64,000 nt of DNA from contig JBAXGH010000002.1 in assembly GCA_037139515.1 (NCBI GenBank), positions 17,727-81,726 of the forward strand, read 5' to 3'. The stretch is from a bacterium. GTDB lineage: Bacteria > Patescibacteriota > Patescibacteriia > JBAXGH01. Below the pieces are notes generated by a model that saw only the letters and a list, made by a program, of their open reading frames with translations, made no database searches and was not told where the DNA came from. Of the stretch, positions 22,801-58,068 are shown one piece after another. The position numbers and the translations under genes were made by a program. The number at the start of each line of letters is the position of its first letter. The stretch's first letter is position 1.

Positions 22801-24046
22801 AGCCAGTATCGGACTGAACAATCTGCGCCAAAACTTCGGTATTATTATTCGACCCATCATTGGCCTGAGTAACAGAAAGCACGGGTGTTAAACGATTCCC
22901 TGCCGTAAGCGACGAAATTATTGATAAAGTTTGATTATGAACGCCATCAAACGAGTCAGAAACGTCCGAACGCAGGAATGCGGTCGAATCAAGGCTGTCG
23001 AGCGAATCCACGTTCAGATTTGAAACCTTGGTTGTTGAGGCGACGACGAATGGCGCCGAACCGGTCGCCTGAGTAGAAGTAAGTTGACCCGACATGCCGA
23101 GCGTCGTGATGCCGGAGAGCGCACCGGTGTTTGAAACGTCAAGGCCTGATGAGTTAATCGAGAAAGTATCGTCGTTGGCATTGCCGATCGTGATGGTTTT
23201 AGCCGCAATTCCCGTGCCGACATCAATCGTTTGCGCGCCGGTGCCACCAAGAGAAATCGTGCCGGTTGATGTTCCGGTACCAATATTAATCGCGAAATCA
23301 GAGTCATTATTTAAACTCACAATTGCCCCGGAAACCGTGAGACCCAGGCTTCCGGTCAAAAGACCGGCTGAGCTGACAGTTCCCGTGCCGGTTGCAGAAA
23401 TATTTCCGGTGGTTGTGATATTACCCGTCAAAGTCAAAACTCCGGCATTTGTAACCGGCACAAAATCCCCCGCTCCACCCGCTTGAGAAGTATTAAAACC
23501 ATCTAAAAGCGAAGCATTTCCGGCCTGAAGCGCAGTCGCCGAAGAAGCCATTTTTCGTCGCGGAGAAAGCGTTTCGCCGTTGACTGTGATTTCGAGCCAA
23601 CGCGAACTTGCGGTATTGAAAAGCGAATCTGGAAGCGCGTTCTGCGGAGCCGCGCCAAGTAGCACGTTGAATAATCCATCGGTCACAGAAACCGAAATAG
23701 CTGTACTTGGAAGATTGCCCGGGCAATCTACGGCTTGCGAAAAAGTCGTATCAACACCATCACCCGCATCATCACCGGCGCTCCACAAGCAGTTGCCGGC
23801 TGCTACCGCATCAAAAATAGCAAACTTTACATTTTGAGATCCATCAGCAACGGTAACTTTTTGCGCATCAGTCAAACGACCCTGATAAGAAAGAATTTGT
23901 GGGGTATCTAAAGTAGCGTGAGTTGCAGCCGGTAAAAATACCGCAAGCGAGGTAAATACAAGCACACCAGCCGCAACAGCTCTTGCGCCGGGATGCAATA
24001 ATAAAGATGAAATTGTATTTCTACCTCCGAGCATGGATATAGGCAC
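13820..24046 (-). CDS. Giant surface protein B (3408 aa): signal anchor, shared N-terminal module, 4 tandem ~235 aa repeats, Gly-rich beta-solenoid-like region, shared C-terminal ~650 aa module, Pro/Thr-rich tail
   Basis: Single open frame of 10.2 kb. N-terminal hydrophobic segment. LGLTVTGAxVSLN...GSAPFVVASTTKVSNLNVD is repeated 4 times. The N-terminus (LDTPQILSYQGRLTDAQKVTV...) and C-terminal ~650 aa are paralogous to the gene at 24147-31562. The C-terminus is PAPVIxEPV low complexity. Confidence 0.85.
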   Translation of the reverse strand: MPISMLGGRNTISSLLLHPGARAVAAGVLVFTSLAVFLPAATHATLDTPQILSYQGRLTDAQKVTVADGSQNVKFAIFDAVAAGNCLWSAGDDAGDGVDTTFSQAVDCPGNLPSTAISVSVTDGLFNVLLGAAPQNALPDSLFNTASSRWLEITVNGETLSPRRKMASSATALQAGNASLLDGFNTSQAGGAGDFVPVTNAGVLTLTGNITTTGNISATGTGTVSSAGLLTGSLGLTVSGAIVSLNNDSDFAINIGTGTSTGTISLGGTGAQTIDVGTGIAAKTITIGNANDDTFSINSSGLDVSNTGALSGITTLGMSGQLTSTQATGSAPFVVASTTKVSNLNVDSLDSLDSTAFLRSDVSDSFDGVHNQTLSIISSLTAGNRLTPVLSVTQANDGSNNNTEVLAQIVQSDTGSSAHALQITQAGSGSALDIISGSLTSAGAITTTNNISTTGAGTITSAGLLSGNLGLTVTGAVVSLNASSDFGVNIATGTSTGTITLGGTGTQAIDIGTGVAAKTITIGNGVNDPTAINSSTLAIASNGISSWNNAGGNLTIQTLTSGTMALDSVGALNLGTVAATSVSVSRSGITTTVNGALTSSQLLTGNLGLTVTGAAVSLNDSSDFGVSLAGGTSTGTITLGGSMGQTIDIGTGVASKIITIGNANDDFFAINSSGLDVTSAGALSGITTLGMSGQLTSTLATGSAPFVVASTTKVSNLNVDTFDDLDSASFLRSDASDSFDGLNSKTLSLLSTLTAGNRTAAVLSVSQANDAANNNTGVLAEIIQLDTASSAHALQITQSGSGSALNIISGSLTSAGVITTSNNISSTGSGTITSAGLLTGNLGLNVTGATVNLNASSDFGVNIATGTSSGSITLGGTGAQAIDIGANIGTKVIRIGNANDDSFQLDSSGLDVSSGGALSGITTLGMSGQLTSTLATGSAPFVVASTTKVSNLNVDTFDDLDSASFLRSDVSDSFDGAHDKTLEILATVLGGARSEPVLSVQEDSSHANLSTGTLVQIALSNNESSAHALQISNAGIGSAIDIVSGSLTSAGAITTTGNISSTGSGTITSAGLLSGTVGVSVGASQSYSGTGAVTLSSGGTNTTLTLNSATTGNIEIGNDGSAEAINIGSGSAVKTIGIGNGNAGNTINIGTNNAATDFINIGSALDQVTINASSLIYGSDMYFRNGADRTIGITTANPDVAGNQLTVRPGNGNGNSAGGNLVLNGGTSGSDSGNAGNVEVTGGLGISATSNGGDIVLLGGNGSGTGVNGVVRIGSPTIGSTRATNLLAIGGGLEVDGDARLDGNLALATTTSSSVGVVTVGGSRFLHDYGANIFLGSGAGNFTASGTDNIAVGNSAFALLTSGSNNASLGGNAMLALTSGDRNTATGAYALNALDVGIDNAAFGYNALLVNDAGGGNTGIGSYALQSNTSGEFNSGLGSYSLVNTTGDNNTGVGYSTGLTNTTGSRNTFVGVGADVASSGLMNASAIGYQAQVGCGNCMVLGSVNGFNGAVVSTNVGIGDTTPAAMLTVGDGDLFQVTSAGLISTTPSSDAVALTLTGTNVSSANLLYLNSKNTSGTIQNIAYGTATTLSGSLVGSALDLKTGVTNVTQSVSGMVLTLPGATTATGTEAIKGISIESPGAVASVSGTPTWTGLDLTMPDITQAGGVLTSTGIKITGGTVTSGTSYALIADSAAGNVGIGTTTPTANLAVKGSVATGGNGTIETGASISDIGGTTDANATTFIFGSSTTFSTSLVVGDEISFSSAPATYAVVTAIYGDTMLATDIALGDGSTQTINVRHPYNVVTGSGTAFLTEIRPGDVMTIVSFLAPSETVVRVVTDTLAVVGGYFEGPYTPLFPGAMFTVRRPIMNIADVDATAHLVVHGDGTLRVGTSEPVSASKNIMSISSDVSFGNGDYASLMLNSSLSYSSANGNTFSGIDSNISSGGGGVGQPVMSMIGMDARPYRTSGSGGSVVGVRATPYVIGGAGPSDMIGVEAGEMTASGGGYISNATGVYIRQQTIGQSSNVGIAIESAQGTGAKTVWVSSRDDITSAEGGIFFGASADTNLYRSAVSTLKTDGALIVAPPARTGLSPSILTVTGAADTALTASAEATDINFNLARTVQFATGAITNQRAMRIQAPTYAFVGASTITNAATLSISGAPVAGTNATITNSAALVVESGNVGIGTSSPSAKLVVVPGALTGDPAVIIDSPDFVSMRLDRGAVSDDAAIRFATAGSDEWLVGTGRNGSNADFSFFNSGVNQLLITDGTGRVSIGGVASPGSKLVVKSSSTTSATSALNVTDSADTSLFFVRDDGTVSVGSSSSPVVGSRLAVNGSGMVHGTVAEYVLSSTKYKKLGMGVLNVGTPAGAIPGFGLEIGTRNAAITLDQLGTGDLNFSVNSSGAGNYVDSDIKMTILPSGNVGIGTTAPSQLFSVGTGATSNFTVTSAGNTVVAGSLNANGNTVIGNATADELTVTATILDDLNLLQMSNHTIGNINGGNGLLTIKGGNSTSSSYNGDAVTLKAGNGYAGSGSVGTNGGAFTVTLGAGGDGANSGATLIPGYAGGNGSAFVITAAAGGKGGDMTQPGGGGTPGAGGNGSVIQINGASGGAGGATTTSNNGANGGAGSMIQIVGGNGGNATGITGGTGGNGGNGGTVTIAGGVKGTGGGFGGSDGAIGDITFKTSGTGGTTRLNINGNAGTVSVALGSTASTTAVCSSLGNTTSPTATSVYELRDCSSTPAADYAEQYPVAAGIASGDIVSIGADDVTTIDGDTIKQLVKSSSTYESKLFGIVSDPTKAGDFNSIGYNIDTADNPMPIALVGRVIVKVNDENGPIAVGDAITSSSAAGVGMKSTKPGMIIGRALSAFAGPGAGTIMVFAKAEYFIGATLTSDGVLTYLGDSVTTRAKNTATALVPGYDSEYINFAGSGWDGSAALATSFKISNVTTNASTSKLAIANTAGAEVFSVNQSGDVSIAGKLYLSDKGSTQNSKYIYYDSDASPSDYMRTNAAGWATGSYDFAELFPTKDETLGAGEVVAIDPLYNEHVKRATSSEQNLLLGIISTRPGFLAGEWDKTEKKVPVALAGRVPTKVTVENGPIAIGDALTVSPTRPGFATKATSSATKTIGYALSATSVEGLVIVYVKTENAVPINIATEVAAPQNQGLQIYQDIDFRGFSITNIKAIRGQNWSIDEAGALAVKTTKTGGLIITKTQEAATLDSVIFPIGVDTVVITNPSAHENSEIFLSWQGNPGSVSWVQDKHEGSFSVKLASPTLTGVKLSYWIVDLVDERPIVADPAPVIASEPVQNNTTTLTAPAESTVSTVPAETTTPTAPAEVIVSDPAVVVPPPVVEPTPVVVEPVIEPVVAPAAPAVEPVITPVIEPAPLEPAPTLEEVPAPPADPSSAPEPAESTPTP
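20820..23365 (-). repeat. Four tandem in-frame coding repeats (~700 bp unit) inside giant gene B
   Basis: Protein repeats start near aa 229, 464, 602 and 837. Near-identical plus-strand shadow ORFs recur at 20565, 21270, 22530 and 23094. Confidence 0.7.
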
Positions 24047-24146: not shown

Positions 24147-27100
24147 TTAAGTTGTTGGGGTACCGGAAAGATCAGCAACCGGAGCCACTAACCCACCATC
24201 GGTAGCTGGCACGGGTTCGACGGCTGGGGCTGGATCGCTGATTGGAGCTGGGGCTGGTTCTGGCGCAGGATCAGCTACCGGATCTGGTGCTGGTACCGGA
24301 TTAGGCACAGGATCGGTTACCGGAACTGGATCCGGTACCGCTGCTGGAGCTACTGGTTCGATCACCGCGGCTGGTTCTGTAGGCGTTGTTGTGGTAGCTG
24401 GCGCGGTTGGGACGGTTGATTCAGCGGGTACGGTTGGGGTCGTAGTTGGAGCTACCGGACCATTCGCAACCGGGTTTTGCGCGGTCACCGGACGAGTATC
24501 GTTCACATTAATAATCCAATACTCGAAACGAAGTTGCATCACAGCTGGACTGCTCAACCTGATTTCGAAGGACCCTTCAGCCTGATTATTAACCCAATAT
24601 CTAGCACCCGGGTCGCCACGGAAAGTTAAGAAGATGCGTGAATTTTCGTGGACAGATGCGTTTGTAATAACAACCATGTCTGAGTTCGCCGGGAAGTAGG
24701 CGGTGTCGATAGTCGCTTTCTCTTCGTTCACCTGAACTATATATTCATTGGACGAAACCGACTTAACCACGAGTGCGCCGTTTTCATCAATAGACCAGTT
24801 CTGACCGCGGATTGCTTTGATATTCGTAATCGAGAAGCCCCTGAAATCAACATCTTGGTAGATCTGGAAATTCTGAGTTTGTTGCGAGGTTGATTCGGTG
24901 GCTAAGTTAGTTGGGACGGCGTTTTCGGTTTTGACGTAGACGATGATGGAGGCATCAACCAGGGTGGCTTCGAGCGCATAGCCAATATTTTTTCTGGTCG
25001 AGGCTGTGGCTTTGGTGGCAAAGCCTGGGCGGGTCGGAGAAACCGTGAGGGCATCACCGACTGCGATTGGACCATTCTCAACCGTCACTTTAGTTGGAAC
25101 ACGACCAGCGAGAGCGACCGGGACCTTCTTTGAAGCCTTATCCCACTCACCCGCTAGGAAGCCAGGGCGAGTTGAGATGATACCGAGAAGGAGGTTAGGC
25201 GCCGAAGAGTCGGCTCGCTTCACGTGTTCTGGGTATAACGGATCGATTGCGACGACTTCACCGGCTCCGAGGGTTTCATCTTTGGTTGGGAAGAGTTCAG
25301 CAAAATCATAGGAACCGGTCGCCCAGCCGGCGGCATTGGTTCGCATGTAATCTGACGGCGACATGTCGGAGTCGTAGTAAATATACTTCGAAGTTTGTGC
25401 GACGCCTTTGTCGGATGGGAAGAGCTTGCCGGTAATCACGACATCACCGGATTGATTGACGCTAAAGACTTCAGCTCCAGCCGTGTTCGCAATCGCTAAT
25501 CTAGATGTTGCGGAATTGGTGGTGATATTCGAAAGCTTGAAATTCGTGGCTTGTGCAGCCGCACCATCCCAGCCGGAGCCGGTGAACGAGATCGCTTGGG
25601 AGTCATAACCTTCAACAAGCGCGGTTGCGGTGTTCTTGGCTTTTACGATTACGGAATCATTCAAATACGTAAGCGTGCCGTCGGTTGTGAGGGTGGCTCC
25701 GAGATAGTATTCAGTCTTAACAAAGACCATGACTGTGCCGGCGCCTGGACCCGCAAAGGCGGAAAGTGCGCGGCCAACAATCATGCCCGACTTTGTGGAT
25801 TTCATGCCTTCGCCGGCGGTTGAACTTGAAGTAATCGGGTCACCGACTGCGATCGAACCATTTTCGTCATTAACTTTAACTTTTACGCGACCAACGAGCG
25901 CGACTGGGAGCGGATTATCGGCCGGATTGATGTTGTAGCCGATAGAGTTAAAATCACCAGCCGTGGCAGGATCGGAAATGACGCCAATAAGTTTGGCTTC
26001 GTATGGAGCTGAAGATTTGATGAGCTCCTTAATTGTGTCACCTTGAGTCGTGGTGACGTCGGTTGTGCCAATCATGACTATGTCCCCCATCGCAGCACCG
26101 ACTTCGACCGGATACTGTTCGGCGTAGTCAGCCATTGGACCACCATTACAATCTTTGATTTCATCAATACCGGCTCCATTGGTATCGTGACAAAGTGCGT
26201 ACGGTCCAGTAATGCCAGTCGCAACAATCAAACTGACTGTGACGCGGCTATTGATGGCGACGGCCGGTTGGTTCATGCCAGCATAGCCTATGGTAATCGC
26301 TTTTGTATGAGAAGTTCCAATATTCACATCTCCATCATTTGCTGAAACGCCTGAACCGCCTAAGACGCTAATATTTCCTCCGGTTTCACCTGGAGATCCT
26401 CCGTTGCCGCCACGAAGCGTAACAGCTCCGCCGGTCGCACCGGTTCCACCATAAAGATTAACCGCTCCGCCGGAGCCATCGTTCGAGGCGCCACCAGCCA
26501 GGTTCAAAGCGCCTGCTGTGCCGAAGGCATTCGTTGTATTTCCGGAAGTAATCGTGAGATCTCTTCCATCAGTGGCAGTTGCACTCTCTATTGAAATATT
26601 GTGATTCGCGTTCTTGCCAAAAACTATTTCTCCCGCAGCATCAACTGAGAGCAGCCTGGCAGCAAAACTGTTCTGAAGCTCCATTAAATTTCCAGTTTGC
26701 GAAGCAGCACCGGTAAGCACAATACCCTTGTTTGCGGCGACCGAAACTTCAATGTCGAGCTCACCATCAGGTGTGCTGTCGGCTGGATAACCAATACTCA
26801 TGCCTCCGCCAGAAGCCTGGTTTTTTATCTTGAGACGACGCTGTTTCCCTAGTTCATCGATGTAATAATAATCATCAGTAGAGTCGTAGGCCATGACCCA
26901 GTCATTCGAATCAGTAGAATTGTGGAGGCGGACGTTGCCATCCTGAACAGTGAGCTTATCTCCCATAGGAGCCGTACCGATGCCTACGCGACCGGTCTGA
27001 TCGATCGTAAATTGGGAGTTAGCTGCTCCACCATAAATACTTACCGGACCAGTTACGTTCATACCGCGTCCAACCTGCATACCACCACGAATATCTAAAT

Positions 27101-30100
27101 CATTACCAACCTGAACGTTAGAACGCGTAGTGAGAGTTCCAGTTTCTATGCCACCCGCTTCGAGTTGTTGGATATAGGCACCACCCATATCAAAAACTTG
27201 GAGCGTAGCCGAGCTATAGTTAATTACGTAAGCATAGCGACCTTGGACATAGACGCTGTATGGATTAGTACCTGTGGTGACAGAGCCAACACTCGTTGGG
27301 CTACCCGGAGTTGAAACATCGAAGACTTGAAGTGAATTAGGAGAGACCCAATTGGTTAGATAGACATAGCGACCTTGGACAAATATTCCGGTAGAAACTG
27401 CTGCGGTGGCGATTGAACCGGCTGAAGATGGGCTTGCGGGATTTGAAATATCGAATATACGGAGCGTGGCGTCGGTAAAATCAGTTTCGTAGGCATATCG
27501 ACCCTGAACATAAAGGCCATATGGATTGATTCCTGAAGCAACTGAGTTGATGAACGTTGGGCTCGCAGGGTTCGAGACATCGTATATTTTTAAACTGCCA
27601 CTCATCGCCACATAAGCATAGCGACCTTGGACAGATACAACTCTAGGGAGAGATCCAGTTGCGACCGAGCCTACAACTACCGGACTCACAGGATTTGAGA
27701 CATCGAAGACCTGGAGAGTTCCGGCATCGCTATTAACTACGTAAGCATAACGGCCCTGAACATAAACGCTTTCCGGCGAGCTACCGGTTGCGACCGAGCT
27801 AATGGCTGACGGACTAGCTGGATTTGAAACATCAAAAATTTGAAGAGTCGCCGCGGTATTACTGACCACGTAAGCATAGAGACCCTGAACGTAAACACTG
27901 GACGGATTATTGTTGGCTGAAACCGAACCGATAGCCGCCGGACTCGCCGAATTGGACACGTCAAAAATTCGGAGGGTGTCAGAAGCCCCGGCGACGACCA
28001 CATAAGCATAGCGTCCCTGAACGTATACTCCGGTTGGGGTGGTGCCGGTGCTAATAGAGCCGGCGGCAGCGGACGGTACTTTGCCGGCTGCATGAAGTTG
28101 AGAAATTGGAGTTGCCGTGCCGATGCCGACATCGCCATTGCCAAGCACGGTTACGAAAGTTCCGCCAGAATCACCAATTTGAAGTACCTCATCGGTGGCG
28201 CCTAGATTGGTGGCAGTCGTGAAATTGAAGGCTGAACTGGTGGTGTTGCCGGATGGGAAATCTGAAGTTAGATTGATTTGACCGCCGGTCGCGGAGCCGT
28301 TTCTGGTTGTCGTAAGATTCAAAGCTCCGGCGCCGGTTGTGCCGATGAATTTTAATTCCGCCAGAACATCATTGGTTCCCCCACCTATCGCGGTGGTCGT
28401 GGAATACATCTTCAAACTTGCCGGACCGAGGTATAATTCGCGCCAACGTTTGGCCGCCGAACCCAAATCATAGGCTATATCAGTCGCCGGCGTTAAATCA
28501 CCAGTAAAAGAAACTGCGTCTGAGAAAACGAAACTCGCACCGGCTCCGGTGGCGTCAAAGGTAGTGGCACCGTTCGAGGCGGCACCCATCGTGGTGTAAT
28601 TTGAACCATCATATGCCATCCGTAACTGCGGCGAAGATGTGCTTAAGACCTCAAGTCGGCTATTTGGCGAGCTAGTCCCGATGCCAACATTCCCCGTCGA
28701 ATCAATGCGAACCTTTTCAGAGAGCGCGGCACCGGCGGCGCGAGTGATGAAGCGGAAAGAGCTATCCTCGCTTCCTTCGGTGGCGTCATCCAAAACCACA
28801 TTAAACTGCGCCACAGCGTTATTATTTCCATTTGCGTTTTCAATATAATAATCCGTTCCAAATCCGAGTCCATTTCCACCCACGGTAGCTGAATTCGTAA
28901 TCTCAAATCTTTGAGCTGCGCTAACTGCGTCGCTTGAGGCTGTAGCCGCTATCGTGAAAAGATGCGATGGAGCCGTGGTGCCGATGCCAATATTGCCATC
29001 CTTATCGATACTCATCTTTACTCCCGCGGTGGTTCCGTTCGCGGTCACAAAATCCATGCGCGCAGGAACATCAGCGCCAACAGCACCGGTCTGAACAACC
29101 TGAATCAAGCCTCCATTCAAGAATCCGGAGCCATCATTTCCCTGGAATCTGAATTGACCCAAGATATTGCCGTCCACCGTGGCGACATTGGTCGCTGAAG
29201 CGGAGTTAGATTTTTGCAAGTCGATACTTGAATAAAGAGATGCATTATCGTAAGTCGTGATGGCGGTGGTACCGTTTTCGGCGATTGTTTGGACTTGGAG
29301 TTTTGATGAAGGAGTCGTGGTGCCGATGCCGATGTTGCCGCTTACTATCAGACCATTAGCCGGAGCGGCGCTTGTGGCGGCGTAACTTCCGATTGCTACC
29401 CCTCCGTTTACATCGAGCCTGGACAATGGGGCGCCTGTGCCGATGCCGACGTTGCCGTTTTCAAGAATGCGCATTTTTTCAGATCCGGCGGTATTGAAAA
29501 TAACATCATCAGCGCCGGCGGTAGTGGTCGCGCTCAAAGTTAGCGCGCCAGTCGATTGCAGAGTGAAAGCACCATTCGCGACTGTCGACGATTCACCATA
29601 AGTAGTAGCTGCAAGAATGCCACCAGTTCCAGAGGTGAAGGAATTCGCGTAGACACTATCTTGGGCGGCAAAATCACCGTTCACGAAAGCATCATTGCCA
29701 TCCGGCACAAAACTCGCGTGGACACCAACGGGAACAGTGGTAACACCACCGGTCCAGAAATTTCCGGTTGAATCAAAGCGGCCACGCTCGACATTGTTGG
29801 TTTCAAAAGTCAGAGCAAAAGCATCATTTGTGCCAAGAATTGCATCGGCCGGGCCAAAGCTGTTTCCGCCCTGGATGAAAGCAAAACCCGAAACATCGCT
29901 CGACTGAATCGCGTTTGAGACAAAGTTAGTACCATCGCCACGGAGAAAATTGCCGGCAGTTGCGGCGTTCGCAATTCTAAAACCAGTCGCGGAATTAATA
30001 ATGCCGTTTACATCAAGCAAAGTTCCGGCCCCCGGCGCCGCGGTGCCGATACCAACTTGGCCAGTGGTTGTAATGCGCATCTTTTCGCTTTGACTCGCGG

Positions 30101-31562
30101 TTTTGAAAATGATTGCATCGGTAGTGCCGACTCCGGAGGTTGATTCAAGTGTGAGGATGGAAGCGGCCGCAGCTCCACCGATAAGAAGTGGCGTGGTGAC
30201 AGAGGTTCCGATTGTTGGCGCGTCTGAAAATGATGGGACGCCGGCATTGGCAATCAAAATCGAATTCGCTCCACCTTGAGCTGTAACCTGAATGGCTGAA
30301 GTAGTGTTGCCATAAAGTATGCCGTTTGGCGTAAAAGTCGTGGCTCCGGTACCACCATTCCCTACCGGTAGAGTGCCGGAAACTTCGGTAGCGAGTGCAA
30401 CAGCTCCGAAGCTTGGAACGGCGCCGCCATGAAGAATCTGAGACGAAGTGCCGGCGGTGGCTTGGGAGAGAGCGCCAGAACCATTGGTGAAGAGCGGGCC
30501 ACCATTTGATGAAAATCCACTGAAAGTGATAGTGCCGGAACTCGTGATGCCGGCGGCGGCTGCAATTATACCCGCAGAGCTGACTTGAAATTGACTAGTC
30601 GCGCCGACAGAGAAAAGGCTGGTGGGAGTCGTGGTGCCGATACCGACATTTCCGGTAGCTAAAATCCTGAGGCGTTCAATATTTTTGGTTTCGAGCGCGA
30701 GCGCATTTGCATCATTCGTGCCAAGAGTTGCGAGGGCGGCAAAAGAGTTGCCACTTTGAACAAAAGTGTTTGGATTACTCATGGAGACAAAGGCCGCTCC
30801 ATCATAAGCATAAAGTGTATTGCCGGTTGAATCCCAGACGACATCGCCCTCTTCCGTTCCGACGACAGCCGAAGGAGCTCCAGCATTGGTTGGGACTCTT
30901 AGACCCTGACTCGCTGAGTGCACTGGAGCTAGAATGCGACCACCGACGGCAAGATTTCTGGTGAGAGTCAAATGGCCACCAGAGTCGGTAACCGGCACGA
31001 AAGCCGCGGAGCCGCCGGACTGCGAAGTATCAAAACCATCTAAGAGAGAGGCATTTCCGGCTTGAAGGGCGGTGGCGCTTGAGCCGATGCGACGGCGCGG
31101 AGAAAGAGTTTCGCCATCAATTCTAACTTCCAACCAACGCCCTTCGGTGGTATTGAAAAGTGAATCCGGAAGCGCAATCTGTCCACTACCAGTATCGCCA
31201 AGAAGGATGTTGAAAAGCCCGTCAGCTACAGTAACGGAAACCGTGCCTGGAGAAGCACAGGTTCCGACAGCAGTCCATTTACAATTCGCAACCAAAACCG
31301 CGACTGGATCATTATAAATTATAAAACTTATCGATCTCACACCATCAGGAACCGTCACTTTTTGAGCATCAGTTAAGCGCCCTTGATAAGACAGAATCTG
31401 AGGCGTGTCGAGAGTGGCTTTAGAAACACTTGGCAATAAAACAGCGAGAGAAACAAAAACAAGCACGCCGATAGCAAGCATTCTTGCTCCGGGATGCAAT
31501 AACAAACCAAAAACTCTGGATTTTAGATTGCCTTCAAGCATGGACAAGGCAGACCTCACCAT
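24147..31562 (-). CDS. Giant surface protein A (2471 aa): signal anchor, shared N-terminal module, LVIVD-repeat beta-propeller region, shared C-terminal ~650 aa module, Pro-rich tail
   Basis: 7.4 kb open frame. About 7 repeats of VYVQGRYAYVV..ATLQIFDVSNPASP (LVIVD-type). The C-terminal region (PMADYAEQYPV...GSYDFAELFPTKDETLGAGEVVAIDP...) is ~75 % identical to giant B. Ends in a PVPxP tail. Confidence 0.85.
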   Translation of the reverse strand: MVRSALSMLEGNLKSRVFGLLLHPGARMLAIGVLVFVSLAVLLPSVSKATLDTPQILSYQGRLTDAQKVTVPDGVRSISFIIYNDPVAVLVANCKWTAVGTCASPGTVSVTVADGLFNILLGDTGSGQIALPDSLFNTTEGRWLEVRIDGETLSPRRRIGSSATALQAGNASLLDGFDTSQSGGSAAFVPVTDSGGHLTLTRNLAVGGRILAPVHSASQGLRVPTNAGAPSAVVGTEEGDVVWDSTGNTLYAYDGAAFVSMSNPNTFVQSGNSFAALATLGTNDANALALETKNIERLRILATGNVGIGTTTPTSLFSVGATSQFQVSSAGIIAAAAGITSSGTITFSGFSSNGGPLFTNGSGALSQATAGTSSQILHGGAVPSFGAVALATEVSGTLPVGNGGTGATTFTPNGILYGNTTSAIQVTAQGGANSILIANAGVPSFSDAPTIGTSVTTPLLIGGAAAASILTLESTSGVGTTDAIIFKTASQSEKMRITTTGQVGIGTAAPGAGTLLDVNGIINSATGFRIANAATAGNFLRGDGTNFVSNAIQSSDVSGFAFIQGGNSFGPADAILGTNDAFALTFETNNVERGRFDSTGNFWTGGVTTVPVGVHASFVPDGNDAFVNGDFAAQDSVYANSFTSGTGGILAATTYGESSTVANGAFTLQSTGALTLSATTTAGADDVIFNTAGSEKMRILENGNVGIGTGAPLSRLDVNGGVAIGSYAATSAAPANGLIVSGNIGIGTTTPSSKLQVQTIAENGTTAITTYDNASLYSSIDLQKSNSASATNVATVDGNILGQFRFQGNDGSGFLNGGLIQVVQTGAVGADVPARMDFVTANGTTAGVKMSIDKDGNIGIGTTAPSHLFTIAATASSDAVSAAQRFEITNSATVGGNGLGFGTDYYIENANGNNNAVAQFNVVLDDATEGSEDSSFRFITRAAGAALSEKVRIDSTGNVGIGTSSPNSRLEVLSTSSPQLRMAYDGSNYTTMGAASNGATTFDATGAGASFVFSDAVSFTGDLTPATDIAYDLGSAAKRWRELYLGPASLKMYSTTTAIGGGTNDVLAELKFIGTTGAGALNLTTTRNGSATGGQINLTSDFPSGNTTSSAFNFTTATNLGATDEVLQIGDSGGTFVTVLGNGDVGIGTATPISQLHAAGKVPSAAAGSISTGTTPTGVYVQGRYAYVVVAGASDTLRIFDVSNSASPAAIGSVSANNNPSSVYVQGLYAYVVSNTAATLQIFDVSNPASPSAISSVATGSSPESVYVQGRYAYVVNSDAGTLQVFDVSNPVSPVVVGSVATGSLPRVVSVQGRYAYVAMSGSLKIYDVSNPASPTFINSVASGINPYGLYVQGRYAYETDFTDATLRIFDISNPASPSSAGSIATAAVSTGIFVQGRYVYLTNWVSPNSLQVFDVSTPGSPTSVGSVTTGTNPYSVYVQGRYAYVINYSSATLQVFDMGGAYIQQLEAGGIETGTLTTRSNVQVGNDLDIRGGMQVGRGMNVTGPVSIYGGAANSQFTIDQTGRVGIGTAPMGDKLTVQDGNVRLHNSTDSNDWVMAYDSTDDYYYIDELGKQRRLKIKNQASGGGMSIGYPADSTPDGELDIEVSVAANKGIVLTGAASQTGNLMELQNSFAARLLSVDAAGEIVFGKNANHNISIESATATDGRDLTITSGNTTNAFGTAGALNLAGGASNDGSGGAVNLYGGTGATGGAVTLRGGNGGSPGETGGNISVLGGSGVSANDGDVNIGTSHTKAITIGYAGMNQPAVAINSRVTVSLIVATGITGPYALCHDTNGAGIDEIKDCNGGPMADYAEQYPVEVGAAMGDIVMIGTTDVTTTQGDTIKELIKSSAPYEAKLIGVISDPATAGDFNSIGYNINPADNPLPVALVGRVKVKVNDENGSIAVGDPITSSSTAGEGMKSTKSGMIVGRALSAFAGPGAGTVMVFVKTEYYLGATLTTDGTLTYLNDSVIVKAKNTATALVEGYDSQAISFTGSGWDGAAAQATNFKLSNITTNSATSRLAIANTAGAEVFSVNQSGDVVITGKLFPSDKGVAQTSKYIYYDSDMSPSDYMRTNAAGWATGSYDFAELFPTKDETLGAGEVVAIDPLYPEHVKRADSSAPNLLLGIISTRPGFLAGEWDKASKKVPVALAGRVPTKVTVENGPIAVGDALTVSPTRPGFATKATASTRKNIGYALEATLVDASIIVYVKTENAVPTNLATESTSQQTQNFQIYQDVDFRGFSITNIKAIRGQNWSIDENGALVVKSVSSNEYIVQVNEEKATIDTAYFPANSDMVVITNASVHENSRIFLTFRGDPGARYWVNNQAEGSFEIRLSSPAVMQLRFEYWIINVNDTRPVTAQNPVANGPVAPTTTPTVPAESTVPTAPATTTTPTEPAAVIEPVAPAAVPDPVPVTDPVPNPVPAPDPVADPAPEPAPAPISDPAPAVEPVPATDGGLVAPVADLSGTPTT
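27150..28070 (-). repeat. LVIVD-type repeat array (coding) in giant gene A
   Basis: YAYVV...L(Q/R)(I/V)FDVSNP(A/V)SP recurs about every 40 aa, 7 times. Confidence 0.65.
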
Positions 31563-36347: not shown

Positions 36348-36427
36348 TGCCGCTGGTGAGAGTCGAACTCACATGGTTTCCCGCGCGATTTTGAGTCGCG
36401 TGCGTATACCAATTCCGCCACAGCGGC
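36348..36427 (-). tRNA. tRNA-Leu (anticodon CAA)
   Basis: Reverse complement GCCGCTG..GCGGAATTGGTATACGC..CGCGA-CTCAAAA-TCGCG..(11-nt variable arm)..GTGAG-TTCGACT-CTCAC-CAGCGGC-A folds as a cloverleaf. A terminator hairpin CCCGAG-acgag-CTCGGG with T run lies 3' of it at 36321-36346. Confidence 0.7.
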
Positions 36428-36431
36428 CTTC

Positions 36432-36505
36432 TAGCGGGGGCCGGATTTGAACCGGCGACCTAGGGCTTATGAGTCCCTCGCTCTTACCAACTGAGCTACC
36501 CCGCC
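36432..36505 (-). tRNA. tRNA-Met (anticodon CAT; elongator type, could be Ile2)
   Basis: Reverse complement GGCGGGGTAGCTCAGTTGGTAAGAGCGAGGGACTCATAAGCCCTAGGTCGCCGGTTCAAATCCGGCCCCCGCTA. G1:U72 pair. Anticodon loop CTCATAA. Confidence 0.7.
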
Positions 36506-37203: not shown

Positions 37204-37280
37204 CGCGGGGTAGAGCAGCCTGGCAGCTCGTCGGGCCCATAACCCGGAGGTCGTTGGTTCAAATCCAACCCCCGCAACCA
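37204..37280 (+). tRNA. Initiator tRNA-fMet (anticodon CAT), CCA encoded
   Basis: CGCGGGGTAGAGCAGCCTGGCAGCTCGTCGGGCCCATAACCCGGAGGTCGTTGGTTCAAATCCAACCCCCGCAACCA. C1:A72 mismatch and three G:C pairs closing the anticodon stem mark it as an initiator. Position 33 is C rather than the usual U. A terminator-like hairpin CGTGG-ataaa-CCACG with T run follows at 37288-37313. Confidence 0.8.
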
Positions 37281-37360: not shown

Positions 37361-38008
37361 CTATTTTTTCACCTTGAGCAGGATTTTCTCTTCTGGTCCA
37401 AGCACGAGCTCGGTGTCGCCAGGCTCTTCGAATCCGAAGTCGAAAGATGTCACGATTTGCGAGGGCATTCTTTTCCGCGTGATGACGGCGTAGAATCTCT
37501 CAAGGATCGACTTGTCGAAATCCGGCAAACCAGCCGCATGACGTTTCTGCTGATCAACGTGGGTATAAAACGCCTCAGGAAAGAATCTGAGATTCCTTCT
37601 ATCTATCGGCGCAATAACCCGAACATCGCCCTCTTCAATCGGCAGGAAATAACCGAAAAAGAAATCTAGAACTCCGAAACGAACAAACTCACTCTCGTTT
37701 TCGGAAACCTTTTTGATGAGCTCCCGAAGACTGCCGCCATTCGAAAAACCAAGCTCCGTCATGCTCGCGACCGCGAATTTGAAGCTCAAACCGCTGTAGT
37801 TGCGGATTTTTTCATTGCCCGCCTTTATCAGCTTGCTAAACGACACCTTCCGATTACAGAGTCTCGGCTTGGAAAGGTTTCCCCAATGGAGACGGTGCTC
37901 AAGACACCCGCAACTCAAGGGCAGCGCAAGGAGAGATAGCTGCAAATCTCCAAACATGGCTGTCTCTGTCTCACTCTCTTCATCAACCCGGGTCTCTTTC
38001 AGTAACAT
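37361..38008 (-). CDS. Hypothetical protein, tandem paralog 1 (215 aa)
   Basis: RBS AAAGGAG before ATG. C-terminal 120 aa are ~80 % identical to the next gene (GLPDFDKSILERFYAVITRKRMPS...LGPEEKILLKVKK). I recognise no family. Confidence 0.6.
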   Translation of the reverse strand: MLLKETRVDEESETETAMFGDLQLSLLALPLSCGCLEHRLHWGNLSKPRLCNRKVSFSKLIKAGNEKIRNYSGLSFKFAVASMTELGFSNGGSLRELIKKVSENESEFVRFGVLDFFFGYFLPIEEGDVRVIAPIDRRNLRFFPEAFYTHVDQQKRHAAGLPDFDKSILERFYAVITRKRMPSQIVTSFDFGFEEPGDTELVLGPEEKILLKVKK

Positions 38009-38209: not shown

Positions 38210-38845
38210 CTACTTCTTCACCTTGAGCAGAATCTTCTCCTCTGGACCAAGCCTGAGCTCAGCATCGCCAGGCTCTTCTAACCTGATGTGAAAATGCGTT
38301 ACGATCCGCGACGGCATTCTTTTCCGCGTGATGACGGCGTAGAACCTTTCGAGAATGGACTTGTCGAAGTCCGGAAGCCCTGATTCTCGACGCTTTCTCT
38401 GATCTTCGACCGTGTAAAACGAATCCGGCGAGTATCTCAGACTGTCTCGAGTTATCGGCATGACAACCTGATCACCATCCTCCTCAATCGGAAAGACGTG
38501 ACCGAAGAACGAATCCGCTGACCCGAAAAGAGCGAACTCGCCTCCTCCCTCAGAAACCTTCCCGACCAGCTCCCGAAGACTTCCACCACTCGGAAAACCA
38601 AGCTCGGCCATGCTCACGACGGCGCACCTGACGCTATATCTGTCGAGCGTATTTTCTTTCACCCTCATGAGCTGGCTGAAAGAAATACTTTGCCCGCAAA
38701 GTCTTGGCGTAGGTGGCGTTATTCTGAGAAAATACTCAAGATCTTCACAGCCCATGGGTTTTGGAAAACAAGCCATAGGCACGATTCCGTAGGCAACCGC
38801 TTTACGAGCATTTTTCGCATCAACGAAGATTTCTTTCCGCAGCAT
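38210..38845 (-). CDS. Hypothetical protein, tandem paralog 2 (start set to the MLRKEI ATG with AAGGAGAG RBS; the ORF track allows 38911)
   Basis: Paralogous to 37361-38008. The proposed start has the same RBS context as paralog 1. Confidence 0.55.
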   Translation of the reverse strand: MLRKEIFVDAKNARKAVAYGIVPMACFPKPMGCEDLEYFLRITPPTPRLCGQSISFSQLMRVKENTLDRYSVRCAVVSMAELGFPSGGSLRELVGKVSEGGGEFALFGSADSFFGHVFPIEEDGDQVVMPITRDSLRYSPDSFYTVEDQRKRRESGLPDFDKSILERFYAVITRKRMPSRIVTHFHIRLEEPGDAELRLGPEEKILLKVKK

Positions 38846-38990
38846 GGACTCTCCTTTTTGGCTGTTCGGCATTGAAACCTTGGCACTACACAGCCATTTC
38901 GTCAAGTCCACAGCCTTGACTTCGGCCTTATTTCATGATAGCTTGCTGAGCATCCAAGTTAGGCCAAAAAACTAACCCCAGGAGGCACTT

Positions 38991-54675: not shown

Positions 54676-55497
54676 CTAGAACAATACCGCGAGCACCGTG
54701 CAGACAGTAATCCCCAGCATCAAAAATGGCAGCGCCGGAAGAGGATGTTGCTTTTTTCCGGATAAAAACGTCGCAACCAGCACCAGAAAACCGGCCAGAG
54801 TTCCAACTATCACCGCGGCCGCCAAATTGGTGGTCGGCGCTGTTGCAACCAGAATCGCCGGCAACGCGATATCTCCACCACCCAGAAAAACAGCCGAGGA
54901 GCCGGGTTCGAATCTGGCTACATGCTCGAAGTTCGCCGTGAGCCTATGCGGCATTACAAATACCACCGGCAAGTGCTTGCTAATAACAGTCTTAGCCATC
55001 GCGACCATGTGATGTGTGATATTAACCGCCACAATATCGTAAACCGCAAGAATCGCGAGCAGTCCAAAAGCCACCGGGAAAGAAATCATCGATCCGAATT
55101 GCGCGGCGACCCCGGCGAGCGCGAGCGCCAAAACCAAGTTTTGAGAAAAAACCCGTGGCGAGAAAAATAGCAGACTGGCGGCGAGCGGAATCATCATGAA
55201 AGCCGCCGGCAATGGCCAAATCATCGAAAACAGCGAGAAGGTTCCGTAAATCAAAGCAAAATAAACCAACCCCGAGTACACCCGAATGAAAGCCTTCACT
55301 TTTGCGAGCAATAACACGAACAGCGTAGCAAGCGCGAAAGCCGAAAGCGCCACAAGTCCAGCATAAGCCTCGCGACCGTCAGCCACCGGAATCAAATGCC
55401 CGCGAGTCGCGAAAACGAAAAGCGCCGTGGTCAAAAACCACCCGGCAGTTTGAGTATAAAACGAGACACCGATAGAAACAGCCTCCTCCCGAGTCAT
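54676..55497 (-). CDS. Presenilin/signal-peptide-peptidase-like GxGD intramembrane aspartyl protease (A22-like)
   Basis: Polytopic protein with LAVYDIVAV (YD), FLGGGDIALP (GxGD) and HPLPALPF (PAL) in the canonical order and spacing. Confidence 0.5.
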   Translation of the reverse strand: MTREEAVSIGVSFYTQTAGWFLTTALFVFATRGHLIPVADGREAYAGLVALSAFALATLFVLLLAKVKAFIRVYSGLVYFALIYGTFSLFSMIWPLPAAFMMIPLAASLLFFSPRVFSQNLVLALALAGVAAQFGSMISFPVAFGLLAILAVYDIVAVNITHHMVAMAKTVISKHLPVVFVMPHRLTANFEHVARFEPGSSAVFLGGGDIALPAILVATAPTTNLAAAVIVGTLAGFLVLVATFLSGKKQHPLPALPFLMLGITVCTVLAVLF

Positions 55498-55504
55498 GAC
55501 ACCA

Positions 55505-55921
55505 TTATATCAAACCACGGAAACGCCGACGCTCTATCTTCAAAATCCGCTCGTGGAACTCATCAAATTTTTTATAAACTTGGTCAGTAATCATCTCAGA
55601 GGCTCGATATCGTTCATCAATCACATCAAATCGATGTTCGAACTCATCGAATCTTTGATCAATATCACGAAACCGCTCGTCGTTTTGGTCGAAGCGCCGG
55701 TCATGCTCCGCGAGCTTTGCGTGAACTTTCACAAACTCACCATCGTGCTCCTCCAGTTTCTTGAATATCAAAGCATGCTCCACGTCGTTTTTATCAAAAC
55801 GCTCGTGCATGTGCGAGAAGCCCTGTTCCATCAGACTTGCCAAATCATCAACCTTGCTACCAAGATTGTTTAAATTATAAGCCAAGCCTTCGATCTTAAC
55901 CGCCACGTCTTCAATTTTCAT
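55505..55921 (-). CDS. Coiled-coil protein with RFD/ERFD repeats (hypothetical)
   Basis: AAGGAGGG RBS before MKIEDV. Repeats HERFDKND, DRRFDQNDERFRDIDQRFDEFEHRFDVIDERYR. Confidence 0.45.
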   Translation of the reverse strand: MKIEDVAVKIEGLAYNLNNLGSKVDDLASLMEQGFSHMHERFDKNDVEHALIFKKLEEHDGEFVKVHAKLAEHDRRFDQNDERFRDIDQRFDEFEHRFDVIDERYRASEMITDQVYKKFDEFHERILKIERRRFRGLI

Positions 55922-56068
55922 TTTTCCCTCCTTCATATTTATGATTATGGGAATATATTTTTCCCTCGGTCAAGAGTCACATTTGCGAGCGTTTTCAAAA
56001 TCGTGTGGATAAAAAATGACGCGATGCTGACTTGCAACACCACGCCGCCTAAACACCATCATTACTCG

Positions 56069-56575
56069 CTACGGAGACTTCACTGGAGCTGATTTCGAGT
56101 CGTACGCAATGATTCTCAGAGTCATGCCGAGCGTGAGCCCCATTCCAGCCAGAACATTCCTGATTTCTCGAAGTTTCTTACGGCCAAGGTTTTTGGTTTT
56201 AAGGACTTCAGTCTCAGTCATCACCACGAGTTGATGAACCACTTTGATGTCTCTGTACTCAAGAGCGTTTGTAATGCCAATCGAGAGCTCAGTATCCTTA
56301 ATGCTCCTAAAGAGCAGATCACCCAATTGAACTCCTGGTTTGACGCAGAAAATTTCGGCCAATGGCCCCTCGCCCTCAGGAAACTCGAACTGAACGTTGG
56401 GAAGCTCGGTGGACGAACCAAGCCGGTTCTCCATGAACAACTGGTTCGCGCGAATCAACTGCTTCACCATCCAGATTTCACGCTCGCTCCGGCTCACATG
56501 CATCAGGTTTGTGGCCTGAAGCAAAGCGAGTTCCGCGAACATCGATGTGACTTCTTTGCTGAGATTCACCGCCAT
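56069..56575 (-). CDS. Free-standing protein with an RNA polymerase alpha-subunit C-terminal domain (alpha-CTD, HhH)-like domain
   Basis: C-terminal 60 aa TELSIGITNALE...TETEVLKTKNLGRKKLREIRNVLAGMGLTLGM align with bacterial RpoA alpha-CTD (ELTVRSANCLK...[32 protein letters not shown]). The N-terminal 100 aa are unrelated to alpha-NTD. Start chosen at MAVNL with GAGGAGAGGG RBS. Confidence 0.6.
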   Translation of the reverse strand: MAVNLSKEVTSMFAELALLQATNLMHVSRSEREIWMVKQLIRANQLFMENRLGSSTELPNVQFEFPEGEGPLAEIFCVKPGVQLGDLLFRSIKDTELSIGITNALEYRDIKVVHQLVVMTETEVLKTKNLGRKKLREIRNVLAGMGLTLGMTLRIIAYDSKSAPVKSP

Positions 56576-56744
56576 AGCCCTCTCCTCTCTTCGTATAAAC
56601 ACTCACATGTTTCGGCGACCTGCACGCCGATCGTATCCGCCCACCCGGGGCGAAACTTCCGCTAATATCAACATGTTTAACGACGCTTGTCAACTGCACG
56701 CCTATAACAAAACCGCCCGAAAGGCGGCTTTGTGTTTTGTTCGA

Positions 56745-56783
56745 AAATGTTTCCCTAAGCTCTAATCTCTAAGCTCTAGACCT
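56745..56783. repeat. TTAGAGCTTAGAG-family repeat, copy 3 (abuts and overlaps the secY stop)
   Basis: AAAATGTTTCCCTAAGCTCTAATCTCTAAGCTCTAGACC. Confidence 0.6.
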
Positions 56784-58068
56784 TAGAGTATGAATCGTAT
56801 TCCGCGGTCTTGAGCTGAGACTCAACCTGTTTCACCGTTTCGATAATCACCGAGACGACGATAAGGAAGCTCGTACCACCAACCGCGATTTGCGTTGAGT
56901 TGGAATATTGCTGCAAGACGTGAGGCAAGACAGCGATAACGGCGAGGAACAAGCCGCCAGCGAGCAAGATTCGGCTCGTCACCTGCGAGATGTATTCCGC
57001 GGTCGGTTTACCCGGGCGAATGCCAGGAATAAACGCTGACTGCTTCTGCAGATTCTCGGCGATTTTTTCCGGCTGGAAAACAATCGAGGTGTAGAAGAAC
57101 GTGAAGAAGAAAACCAGCAAGAAGTACGCGACCGAATAGAAGATCTGGTTATTGAAGATGCTTACAACCCAGTGCGCGATATCCGAAAGCCAAATCGAGC
57201 GCACATTAAAGAAGAAGCGCGCAATCATCGGCGGGAAAAGCATGACCGAAATCGCAAAGATGATCGGGATGACCCCGGCCATGTTCACACGAAGCGGAAG
57301 ATGGTTCGAGAATCCCGGAACGCTTGAATACTGCGTCGCCTGGCGGGCATGCGCGATCGGAATATTGCGCTGAGCTTCGTTAATCATGACAACTCCGACG
57401 ACCATGAGAAGCGCGATCGCGACGAAAAGAATCGCCGTGAAGAGCTGCGAGCGGTCAAAGGTCACGAGGAACTGCGTGAGCGAAACCGGCATGCTCGCAA
57501 TGATACCAGCGAAGATAATAAGCGACATTCCGTTACCAATCTTCTTCTCCGAAATCAGTTCACCGAGCCACATCAGGAATACCGTTCCGGCCGTCATCGT
57601 GGTCATCGCGAGCACCATTTCTAGTGGTGTGCTCAAGACCTCTCCGCGAGCCGCAAGCGGCCCAGAAGACTTGAGAAGTGCAATCAAACCATAGGACTGC
57701 AGAAGCGAAAGCGGAATCGTGAGCCAACGCGTCCAACGGTTGATTTTCTGCTTGCCGAATTCCCCTTCCTTCTGAAGCTCATCAAGCGCCGGGAAAATCA
57801 TGCCCAAGAGCTGGAAGATAATCGAAGCTGTGATGTACGGAGCAACGCCAAGCGCGACCACGGAAAATTGCGCAATCGTGCCACCGCTGAAGATATTCAA
57901 AAGACCAAGAACCTGGTTCTGTTCAAAAAACTGACGCAAAACCGTGGCGTCAACTCCAGGAATCGGAATATGCGCGATTACCCGGAAGAACGCGAGCACT
58001 CCGACGACAAACAAAACACTCTTCCGCAGTTCCGGAATATTCCAGATTCGCTTAAGGGTATCAATCAT
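56776..58068 (-). CDS. secY: Preprotein translocase subunit SecY
   Basis: 10-TM SecY pattern. GGTSFLIVVSVIIETVKQ C-terminus. Confidence 0.9.
   Translation of the reverse strand: MIDTLKRIWNIPELRKSVLFVVGVLAFFRVIAHIPIPGVDATVLRQFFEQNQVLGLLNIFSGGTIAQFSVVALGVAPYITASIIFQLLGMIFPALDELQKEGEFGKQKINRWTRWLTIPLSLLQSYGLIALLKSSGPLAARGEVLSTPLEMVLAMTTMTAGTVFLMWLGELISEKKIGNGMSLIIFAGIIASMPVSLTQFLVTFDRSQLFTAILFVAIALLMVVGVVMINEAQRNIPIAHARQATQYSSVPGFSNHLPLRVNMAGVIPIIFAISVMLFPPMIARFFFNVRSIWLSDIAHWVVSIFNNQIFYSVAYFLLVFFFTFFYTSIVFQPEKIAENLQKQSAFIPGIRPGKPTAEYISQVTSRILLAGGLFLAVIAVLPHVLQQYSNSTQIAVGGTSFLIVVSVIIETVKQVESQLKTAEYDSYSKV

Follow-up and report, generated by a model that had tools for sequence, protein, structure and literature searches.

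The C-terminal domain (CTD) of the RNA polymerase alpha subunit, RpoA, is the closest described counterpart of the protein analyzed here. In the cryo-electron microscopy structure of the rrnB P1 complex, alpha residues R265 and N294 enter the minor groove of the UP element and K291 and K298 form salt bridges with DNA phosphates (PMC7822876). R265 is known as the classical UP-element determinant (PMC3828302) and UP-dependent activation requires it (PMC7822876; PMC3828302). The domain, represented in Pfam by PF03118, is also among the single-copy markers used for phylogenomics (PMC3663571). Here, we describe an alpha-CTD that stands outside RpoA. It is encoded by an open reading frame (ORF) of 168 amino acids (aa) at positions 56069..56575, minus strand, of a 64,000-nucleotide (nt) stretch of DNA from an uncultivated organism of the Patescibacteria (Candidate Phyla Radiation; assembly GCA_037139515.1, contig JBAXGH010000002.1, positions 17,727 to 81,726), from now on referred to as the window. 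The gene had been singled out in a prediction made from the sequence alone, hereafter the original prediction, and the interval given there, from the ATG at 56575 to the stop codon at 56071..56069, is exact. The encoded protein is identical to GenBank MEI7741035.1, which carries the name 'DNA-directed RNA polymerase subunit alpha C-terminal domain-containing protein'. It represents an intact, apparently autonomous alpha-CTD gene with an orphan helical N-terminus that is confined to one lineage.

Identity and fold of the alpha-CTD

Residues ~84-153 (56117..56326, minus strand) are a canonical RNA polymerase alpha-CTD of the helix-hairpin-helix type, as indicated by profiles, alignments, the structural model and structure searches. 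Residues 87-143 align with positions 10-66 of the 67-position Pfam profile PF03118 (RNA_pol_A_CTD) with E=4e-13 and 49.3 bits, a significant score given the gathering cut-off of 23.8 bits. The best PDB matches identified by phmmer are E. coli alpha-CTD chains (E=1.7e-12), and E. coli RpoA used as a tblastn query aligns with 47.8% identity over 67 aa, corresponding to alpha residues 252-318. AlphaFold2, based on an alignment of 25 sequences (24 alpha-CTD-containing sequences), predicted the structure of residues ~90-150 with a predicted local distance difference test (pLDDT) score of 93-96. When this model was compared with solved alpha-CTDs using Foldseek (among them 3n4m_C, 9zum and 1lb2), root-mean-square deviations (rmsd) of 0.6-1.2 Å and target TM-scores of 0.8-0.96 were obtained. 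The description of the gene product as a free-standing alpha-CTD-like protein is therefore supported by PF03118, PDB phmmer and Foldseek in agreement. The domain had been assigned to the last ~60 residues, of which the C-terminal location could be retained but not the size, as it spans ~70 residues (84-153) and is followed by a 15-residue tail; similarly, the preceding part is ~83 and not 100 residues long.

NCBIfam rpoA models match only through their last ~70 positions, with scores far under their cut-offs. NF003513 aligns its positions 249-320 with residues 83-154 (69.7 bits vs a cut-off of 302) and TIGR02027 reaches 48.9 vs a cut-off of 227.8, placing the protein outside the RpoA equivalogs. 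A single significant alpha-CTD domain was found, the only additional 'domain' having an i-Evalue of 1.7e+03, and the protein is thus not a tandem alpha-CTD repeat, which would comprise two or more domains. A weak Pfam match to RAD51D_N (E=0.039) is below threshold. The domain is more basic than that of E. coli alpha, with an isoelectric point (pI) of 9.9 for residues 87-153 vs 8.1.

DNA-contact and protein-contact residues

Based on alignments, the equivalent of E. coli R265 is Gly100, encoded by a GGC codon at 56276..56278 (minus strand). The remaining positions correspond as follows: Asn103 to N268, Ala104 to C269, Lys126 to K291, Asn129 to N294, Gly131 to G296, Lys133 to K298 and Lys134 to S299. 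Within the '265 determinant' (R265, N268, C269, G296, K298, S299), N268, G296 and K298 are kept and three positions are changed, including R265, the most important of all; K291 and N294 are kept as well. The DNA-contact residues whose conservation the original prediction had proposed to examine share this mixed outcome, N268, G296 and K298 being present and R265 being lost. Further substitutions relative to E. coli alpha are L260T, L289V and a Lys in place of D258. Residues of the fold and hairpin, specifically, L262, L270, I275, L281, G296, L300, L307, L312 and L314, are kept. Retained as well are the acidic D259/E261 patch and T285/E286/E288; in E. coli alpha, these positions belong to the surfaces contacted by sigma region 4 and by activators.

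To place the substitution at position 265 in context, an exhaustive HMMER search of 1.84 billion representative proteins can be considered, which yielded 3039 proteins at E<=1e-3, all matched via residues ~83-154. Of the 297 alpha-CTD domains from non-RpoA proteins, 244 (82%) have an Arg at position 265. Among the best 150 of the 3039 matches, the other domains without R265 are exclusively degenerate repeats within multi-repeat proteins, many of which have lost hairpin motif 294-298 too, a motif that is intact in the present protein (NLGRKK). Within the same 150 matches, the present protein is the sole single-domain case with neither R nor K at this position.

Proposed function in trans

We tentatively propose, at a probability that we would place a little short of even, that the protein is an alpha-CTD-type interaction module working in trans. 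In this proposal, a small accessory protein would combine a unique helical N-terminus (residues ~2-52), an acidic linker of about 30 residues, one alpha-CTD and a basic tail. The module would touch the DNA backbone, showing little sequence preference or an altered one, and/or would bind proteins that normally contact the alpha-CTD, and self-association or partner docking would be mediated by the N-terminal helix. The proposal is based on the combination of features that are kept (the second hairpin, the positive charge and the protein-contact positions) with those that are absent (R265 and the core-assembly domain). Use as a portable module is further supported by the wide reuse of the alpha-CTD outside RpoA, in arrays and together with sigma-70 region 4 or superfamily 2 (SF2) helicases. 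The protein would probably modulate transcription or DNA organisation in a lineage-specific and non-essential role.

The N-terminal region, residues 2-52 (56420..56572, minus strand), is predicted to be helical by AlphaFold2. The alignment-based model contains one long helix and the single-sequence model two, 7-27 and 31-51, the latter model being too poor for use (pLDDT 39). The alignment columns of this region contain no real homologs and the confidence of the predicted helix is soft there; a small number of alignments extend back as far as residues 28-60, but there they run into RpoA linkers, the proteins concerned being fragmentary or chimeric. Dimerisation through an N-terminal coiled coil was considered and rejected, as neither hydrophobic-moment nor heptad tests gave a significant result. 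Residues 53-83 (56327..56419, minus strand) form an acidic linker modeled at low confidence (pLDDT 51-56) that is presumably flexible, with residues 56-86 having a pI of 4.05 and containing six D+E and one K+R. The C-terminal tail RIIAYDSKSAPVKSP (15 residues, 154-168; 56072..56116, minus strand) is basic (pI 9.7) and likewise modeled at low confidence.

A number of observations weigh against a function in trans. The N-terminal helix does not show significant heptad or amphipathic periodicity in the two tests mentioned above, which makes self-association a guess, and no homolog of residues 1-83 exists among the 1.84 billion representative proteins searched exhaustively with HMMER. A word-indexed search of 5.8 billion clustered proteins returned no whole-protein relative other than the protein itself. 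The identical sequence is found in two assemblies (ENA and Logan; ERZ27300037, contig k141_46655; run SRR7053541; 92-kb Patescibacteria contig), the two contigs carrying the gene being 100% identical in DNA and probably derived from the same sample. The codon-bias score of the gene is 0.018 vs 0.08-0.15 in housekeeping genes, a low value resembling that of other lineage-specific ORFs, and the promoter and terminator assignments described below are consensus matches only. Finally, no characterised free-standing alpha-CTD protein was found in the literature searched.

If functional, the protein would represent a natural alpha-CTD used away from RNA polymerase, carrying a natural R265G 'mutation' that parts the protein-contact role of the domain from UP-element reading. 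It also draws attention to the many detached alpha-CTD proteins, including arrays and fusions to sigma region 4 or to helicases. Alone, a metagenome singleton from one sample carries limited weight. Detached PF03118 copies could moreover be counted as duplicated markers, thus distorting contamination estimates for metagenome-assembled genomes or marker trees.

Distribution, neighborhood and origin

The surroundings of secY were surveyed in 80 loci (L003-L082), about 50 of them from Patescibacteria, using tblastn and an alpha-CTD hidden Markov model (HMM) built from 304 domains. The closest secY relatives share at most 59% identity and are found in metagenome-assembled genomes labelled Falkowbacteria, Kerfeldbacteria, Uhrbacteria and Moranbacteria. 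No alpha-CTD ORF was detected near secY in the ~50 related Patescibacteria loci, except for a true rpoA in L054, and across all 80 loci the only alpha-CTD ORFs are true rpoA genes. Among related loci, both the alpha-CTD ORF and the coiled-coil ORF next to it occur in this genome alone.

In 16 of the 45 related loci that could be measured, the gene following secY begins within 160 bp (adk in 15, map in one). The remaining measurable loci contain 0.4-6.3 kb of unrelated ORF families at the secY-adk junction, with 11 families recurring in two or more loci and many singletons. This junction is an insertion hot spot in the Falkowbacteria, Uhrbacteria and Kerfeldbacteria relatives. Further along, map followed by ruvX replaces the usual infA-rpmJ-rpsM-rpsK-rpsD-rpoA-rplQ order in this clade, and rpoA is not found within 10 kb; among the Lachnospiraceae loci retrieved, rpoA is found ~4 kb further downstream. 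The suggestion that the gene sits where the rpoA neighborhood normally begins carries little weight, the gene being located between secY and adk, in a clade with the map-ruvX order and at a junction that in relatives is a general hot spot for insertions.

With respect to origin, the CTD is 48% identical to that of E. coli and 52% identical to that of P0145, a protein of the representative library, but only 29% (median) to those of 115 Microgenomates RpoA proteins; this Patescibacteria comparison set stems from a search seeded with L054 and represents Microgenomates, not the organism's own clade. The greater similarity to E. coli-type CTDs (48-52%) than to Microgenomates CTDs (29%) hints at a foreign origin. 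The gene has a GC content of 0.50 and a third-position GC content (GC3) of 0.61, within the ranges of its neighbors (0.47-0.54 and 0.45-0.66, respectively), and since its composition fits the host genome it should not be a very recent arrival. An origin from a mobile element, phage or defence system was considered and rejected: no PHROG or PADLOC model matches at E<=0.1, and no flanking repeats of note or nearby Rfam elements were found around the gene. Phage and plasmid records matched by tblastn contain, where a gene is listed, rpoA and are mostly misfiled chromosomal records; many matches have no listed gene. One alpha-CTD-like stretch without a listed gene is located at 15949-16185 of a 16.5-kb plasmid of Yoonia sp. 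BS5-3 (NZ_CP150953.1) and could represent either a detached alpha-CTD carried by a plasmid or a gene crossing the start of the record.

Alternative explanations

One possibility is that the gene is an evolutionary by-product, a captured or duplicated rpoA-type 3' piece fused to a de novo or diverged N-terminus with little or no function, expressed or not. We regard this explanation as unlikely but serious. A singleton with an orphan N-terminus, missing from ~50 related loci and located at a junction that gathers unrelated lineage-specific ORFs, would fit such an event. Loss of the otherwise conserved R265, the low codon-bias score and a CTD nearer to non-Patescibacteria RpoA than to Microgenomates RpoA, compatible with a foreign origin, point in the same direction. 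However, the reading frame is intact and is accompanied by a strong Shine-Dalgarno sequence as well as promoter-like and terminator-like sites, the composition fits the host genome, and most fold and hairpin residues are kept (exceptions L260T and L289V) in a confidently predicted fold.

Competition with RNA polymerase alpha, either for A/T-rich UP elements or for activators contacting the alpha-CTD, had been put forward in the original prediction and appears improbable to us. A canonical fold that keeps N268, K291, N294, G296 and K298, together with the D259/E261 patch and T285/E286/E288, in a basic domain would suit a competitor. Yet UP minor-groove insertion and UP-dependent activation need R265 (PMC7822876; PMC3828302), and with this minor-groove side chain replaced by Gly100, canonical UP-element reading or competition by the protein is unlikely and the idea of an UP-element competitor is weakened. 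The protein-competition half of this explanation may still apply but lacks a known partner, and the protein is conserved in no relative.

A more specific form of action in trans would be a 'mini-alpha', in which a self-associating helix tethers alpha-CTDs that have given up UP-element reading but keep their protein-contact surfaces exposed, and thereby titrate or bridge sigma region 4 or regulators that normally contact the alpha-CTD of RNA polymerase. We give this only a slim chance. If true, it would amount to a built-in anti-activator or adaptor in Patescibacteria with their reduced genomes and offer a first functional handle on the class.

The last two explanations concern rpoA itself. An RpoA profile constructed from 15 full-length sequences matches residues 79-153 only. 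Even with filters off and at E<=1000 it remains silent on residues 1-86, in line with the original prediction, in which the N-terminal part was distinguished from the alpha dimerisation domain. Neither PF01193 nor PF01000, the dimerisation and core-assembly domain, gives a Pfam match in the protein. Judged from its sequence, the protein lacks the alpha N-terminal assembly domain and is therefore no core RNA polymerase subunit. No full rpoA is present in the window or in ~7.7 kb of additional contig sequence, which carries glycosyltransferase and methyltransferase genes and two ORFs without a Pfam match. Placement in an rpsM-rpsK-rpsD-rpoA-rplQ operon does not apply either, the neighbors being secY, the coiled-coil ORF, a protease gene of the signal-peptide-peptidase (SPP) type and adk.

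A split alpha subunit, in which rpoA supplies the N-terminal domain only and the present protein provides the CTD in trans by docking via its N-terminal helix, is very unlikely. A helix, a linker and a CTD in this order are reminiscent of the C-terminal part of alpha, and the missing rpoA in the available contig sequence would be compatible with such an arrangement. However, the splitting of an essential subunit would be expected clade-wide and the protein is a singleton, the CTD is present in 120 of 120 listed Patescibacteria RpoA proteins (Microgenomates, not the organism's own clade), and R265 is lost.

The gene is not an rpoA pseudogene: apart from the RpoA-like CTD, the sole point in its favor, the negligible case for a frameshifted or truncated rpoA or an assembly artefact is met by the end of secY only 200 bp upstream, by the gene's own translation and transcription signals, by the exact agreement of the two assemblies (ENA and Logan, probably the same sample) and by the lack of any alpha N-terminal remnant in the six frames of 55900-56800 or any window ORF, E. 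coli RpoA tblastn and the RpoA HMM recovering the CTD only from the whole window. A frameshifted rpoA, of which the ORF would be the 3' half, had been named in the original prediction as an outcome that would refute it and is rejected on these grounds.

Gene organization and putative expression signals

On the minus strand, the gene order is L6-L18-S5-L15-secY-[alpha-CTD]-[143-aa coiled-coil ORF]-[presenilin/SPP-type protease]-adk-map-ruvX-recO, with secY (56776-58068) located upstream of the alpha-CTD gene at a spacing of 200 bp. A Shine-Dalgarno region, GAGAGGAGAGGGCT (56576..56589, minus strand), abuts the ATG at 56575. An alternative in-frame GTG at 56602, 27 nt upstream, would yield a protein of 177 aa; because AGGAG ends 6 nt before the ATG, the latter was taken as the start codon.

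A GC-rich palindromic hairpin (CCGCC, 5-nt loop, GGCGG; 56713..56727, unstranded) is found 50 nt past the secY stop codon. When read on the minus strand it is followed by the T-run TTTTGTTAT, the hairpin scan itself having reported the plus strand, and on account of this T-run the hairpin is likely the secY terminator, which would part the alpha-CTD gene from the ribosomal-protein/secY transcript. A sigma-70-type promoter-like site (TTGACA-18 nt-GATATT; 56664..56693, minus strand) with 10 of 12 consensus matches is located ~90 nt before the start codon. With five promoter-like sites observed in the region vs 2.2±1.4 in shuffled sequences, this putative promoter can be called suggestive. Starting 23 nt past the alpha-CTD stop codon, a terminator-like hairpin of 12 pairs (six G-C) is followed by ATTTTTTATC (56018..56046, minus strand). 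Flanked by the promoter-like site and the terminator-like hairpin, the alpha-CTD gene looks monocistronic.

Neighboring genes and other features of the window

The 143-aa coiled-coil ORF (55505-55936, minus strand), located directly downstream of the alpha-CTD gene, is rich in RFD/ERFD repeats and has its own promoter-like site (55973..55944). It belongs to no family, shows weak PHROG matches of unknown function and has no counterpart in relatives. Also encoded between secY and adk is a homolog of presenilin/SPP-type intramembrane aspartyl proteases (54676-55497, minus strand; PF06550, E=1.2e-19; NF041679, E=1.4e-25, 90.4 bits, under the cut-off of 125). It is an unusual neighbor of a ribosomal-protein cluster, and a gene of this type occupies the same site in three related loci (L016, 11369-12187; L042, 1683-2537; L012, ~2057-2461).

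Elsewhere in the window, two giant ORFs are adjacent to each other on the minus strand (13820-24046 and 24147-31562). The first encodes 3408 aa without a Pfam match and the second 2471 aa with LVIVD/beta-propeller repeats. A pair of paralogous ORFs, 37361-38008 and 38210-38911 (both minus strand; 215 and 233 aa), has no Pfam family and shares a conserved C-terminal stretch of ~130 residues. The pair adjoins three tRNA genes (36348-36427, 36432-36505 and 37204-37277).

Comparison with known alpha-CTD systems

The fold of the present protein is shared with the RpoA alpha-CTD (E. coli; PDB 3K4G, 1LB2 and 3N4M; rmsd 0.6-1.2 Å). Sequence identity is 44-48% to proteobacterial alpha-CTDs (E. coli, Caulobacter and Vibrio) and 35-36% to that of Bacillus subtilis. 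In both proteins the domain comes after a flexible linker, and N268, K291, N294, G296, K298, D259, E261, T285, E286 and E288 are kept. The present protein differs from RpoA in lacking the alpha N-terminal domain, without which normal incorporation into core RNA polymerase is impossible. It further differs by Gly at 265, Lys at 299, Thr at 260 and Lys at 258, by its more basic character and by a location outside rpsM-rpsK-rpsD-rpoA-rplQ.

NF005841 (PRK07758), a family of 95-residue 'hypothetical protein' sequences, matches weakly through residues 97-148 (E=1.6e-4). With 21.9 bits vs a cut-off of 115, the present protein is not a member, and it is longer owing to an extra N-terminal region. The Pfam helix-hairpin-helix modules HHH_5 and RAD51D_N have a related architecture and the same families co-match alpha-CTD arrays; however, their matches here are sub-threshold and the alpha-CTD is by far the best assignment in both sequence and structure. 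RpoA-like proteins of ~400 aa with two tandem CTDs also occur in the representative library.

Detached use of the alpha-CTD is what the present protein has in common with non-RpoA PF03118 proteins, to which the PGAP pipeline of NCBI assigns the very name that MEI7741035.1 bears. The RpoA N-terminal domain is present in 13 of the best 150 of the 3039 matches. Among the remainder of these 150 are proteins with 2-12 alpha-CTDs in tandem as well as proteins in which the domain is joined to sigma-70 region 4 or to an SF2 helicase. Many short single-domain matches still have the linker motif of RpoA and probably represent fragments of genes. Unusual alpha-CTD architectures are exemplified by P0011, P0034, P0286, P0003, P0002, P0009, P0010, P0119, P0007 and P0008. 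In the literature searched, no characterised representative was found of the two-CTD RpoA-like proteins, the arrays (up to 10-12 repeats), the sigma fusions or the helicase fusions. Detached alpha-CTD domains are therefore a common and apparently uncharacterised class in databases, of which the present protein is a further member. Whereas the top-scoring members of this class are arrays and fusions that mostly have R265, the present protein is single-domain and lacks it. It is unusual within the class in three traits: its single domain, its orphan N-terminus and the Gly that takes the place of R265.

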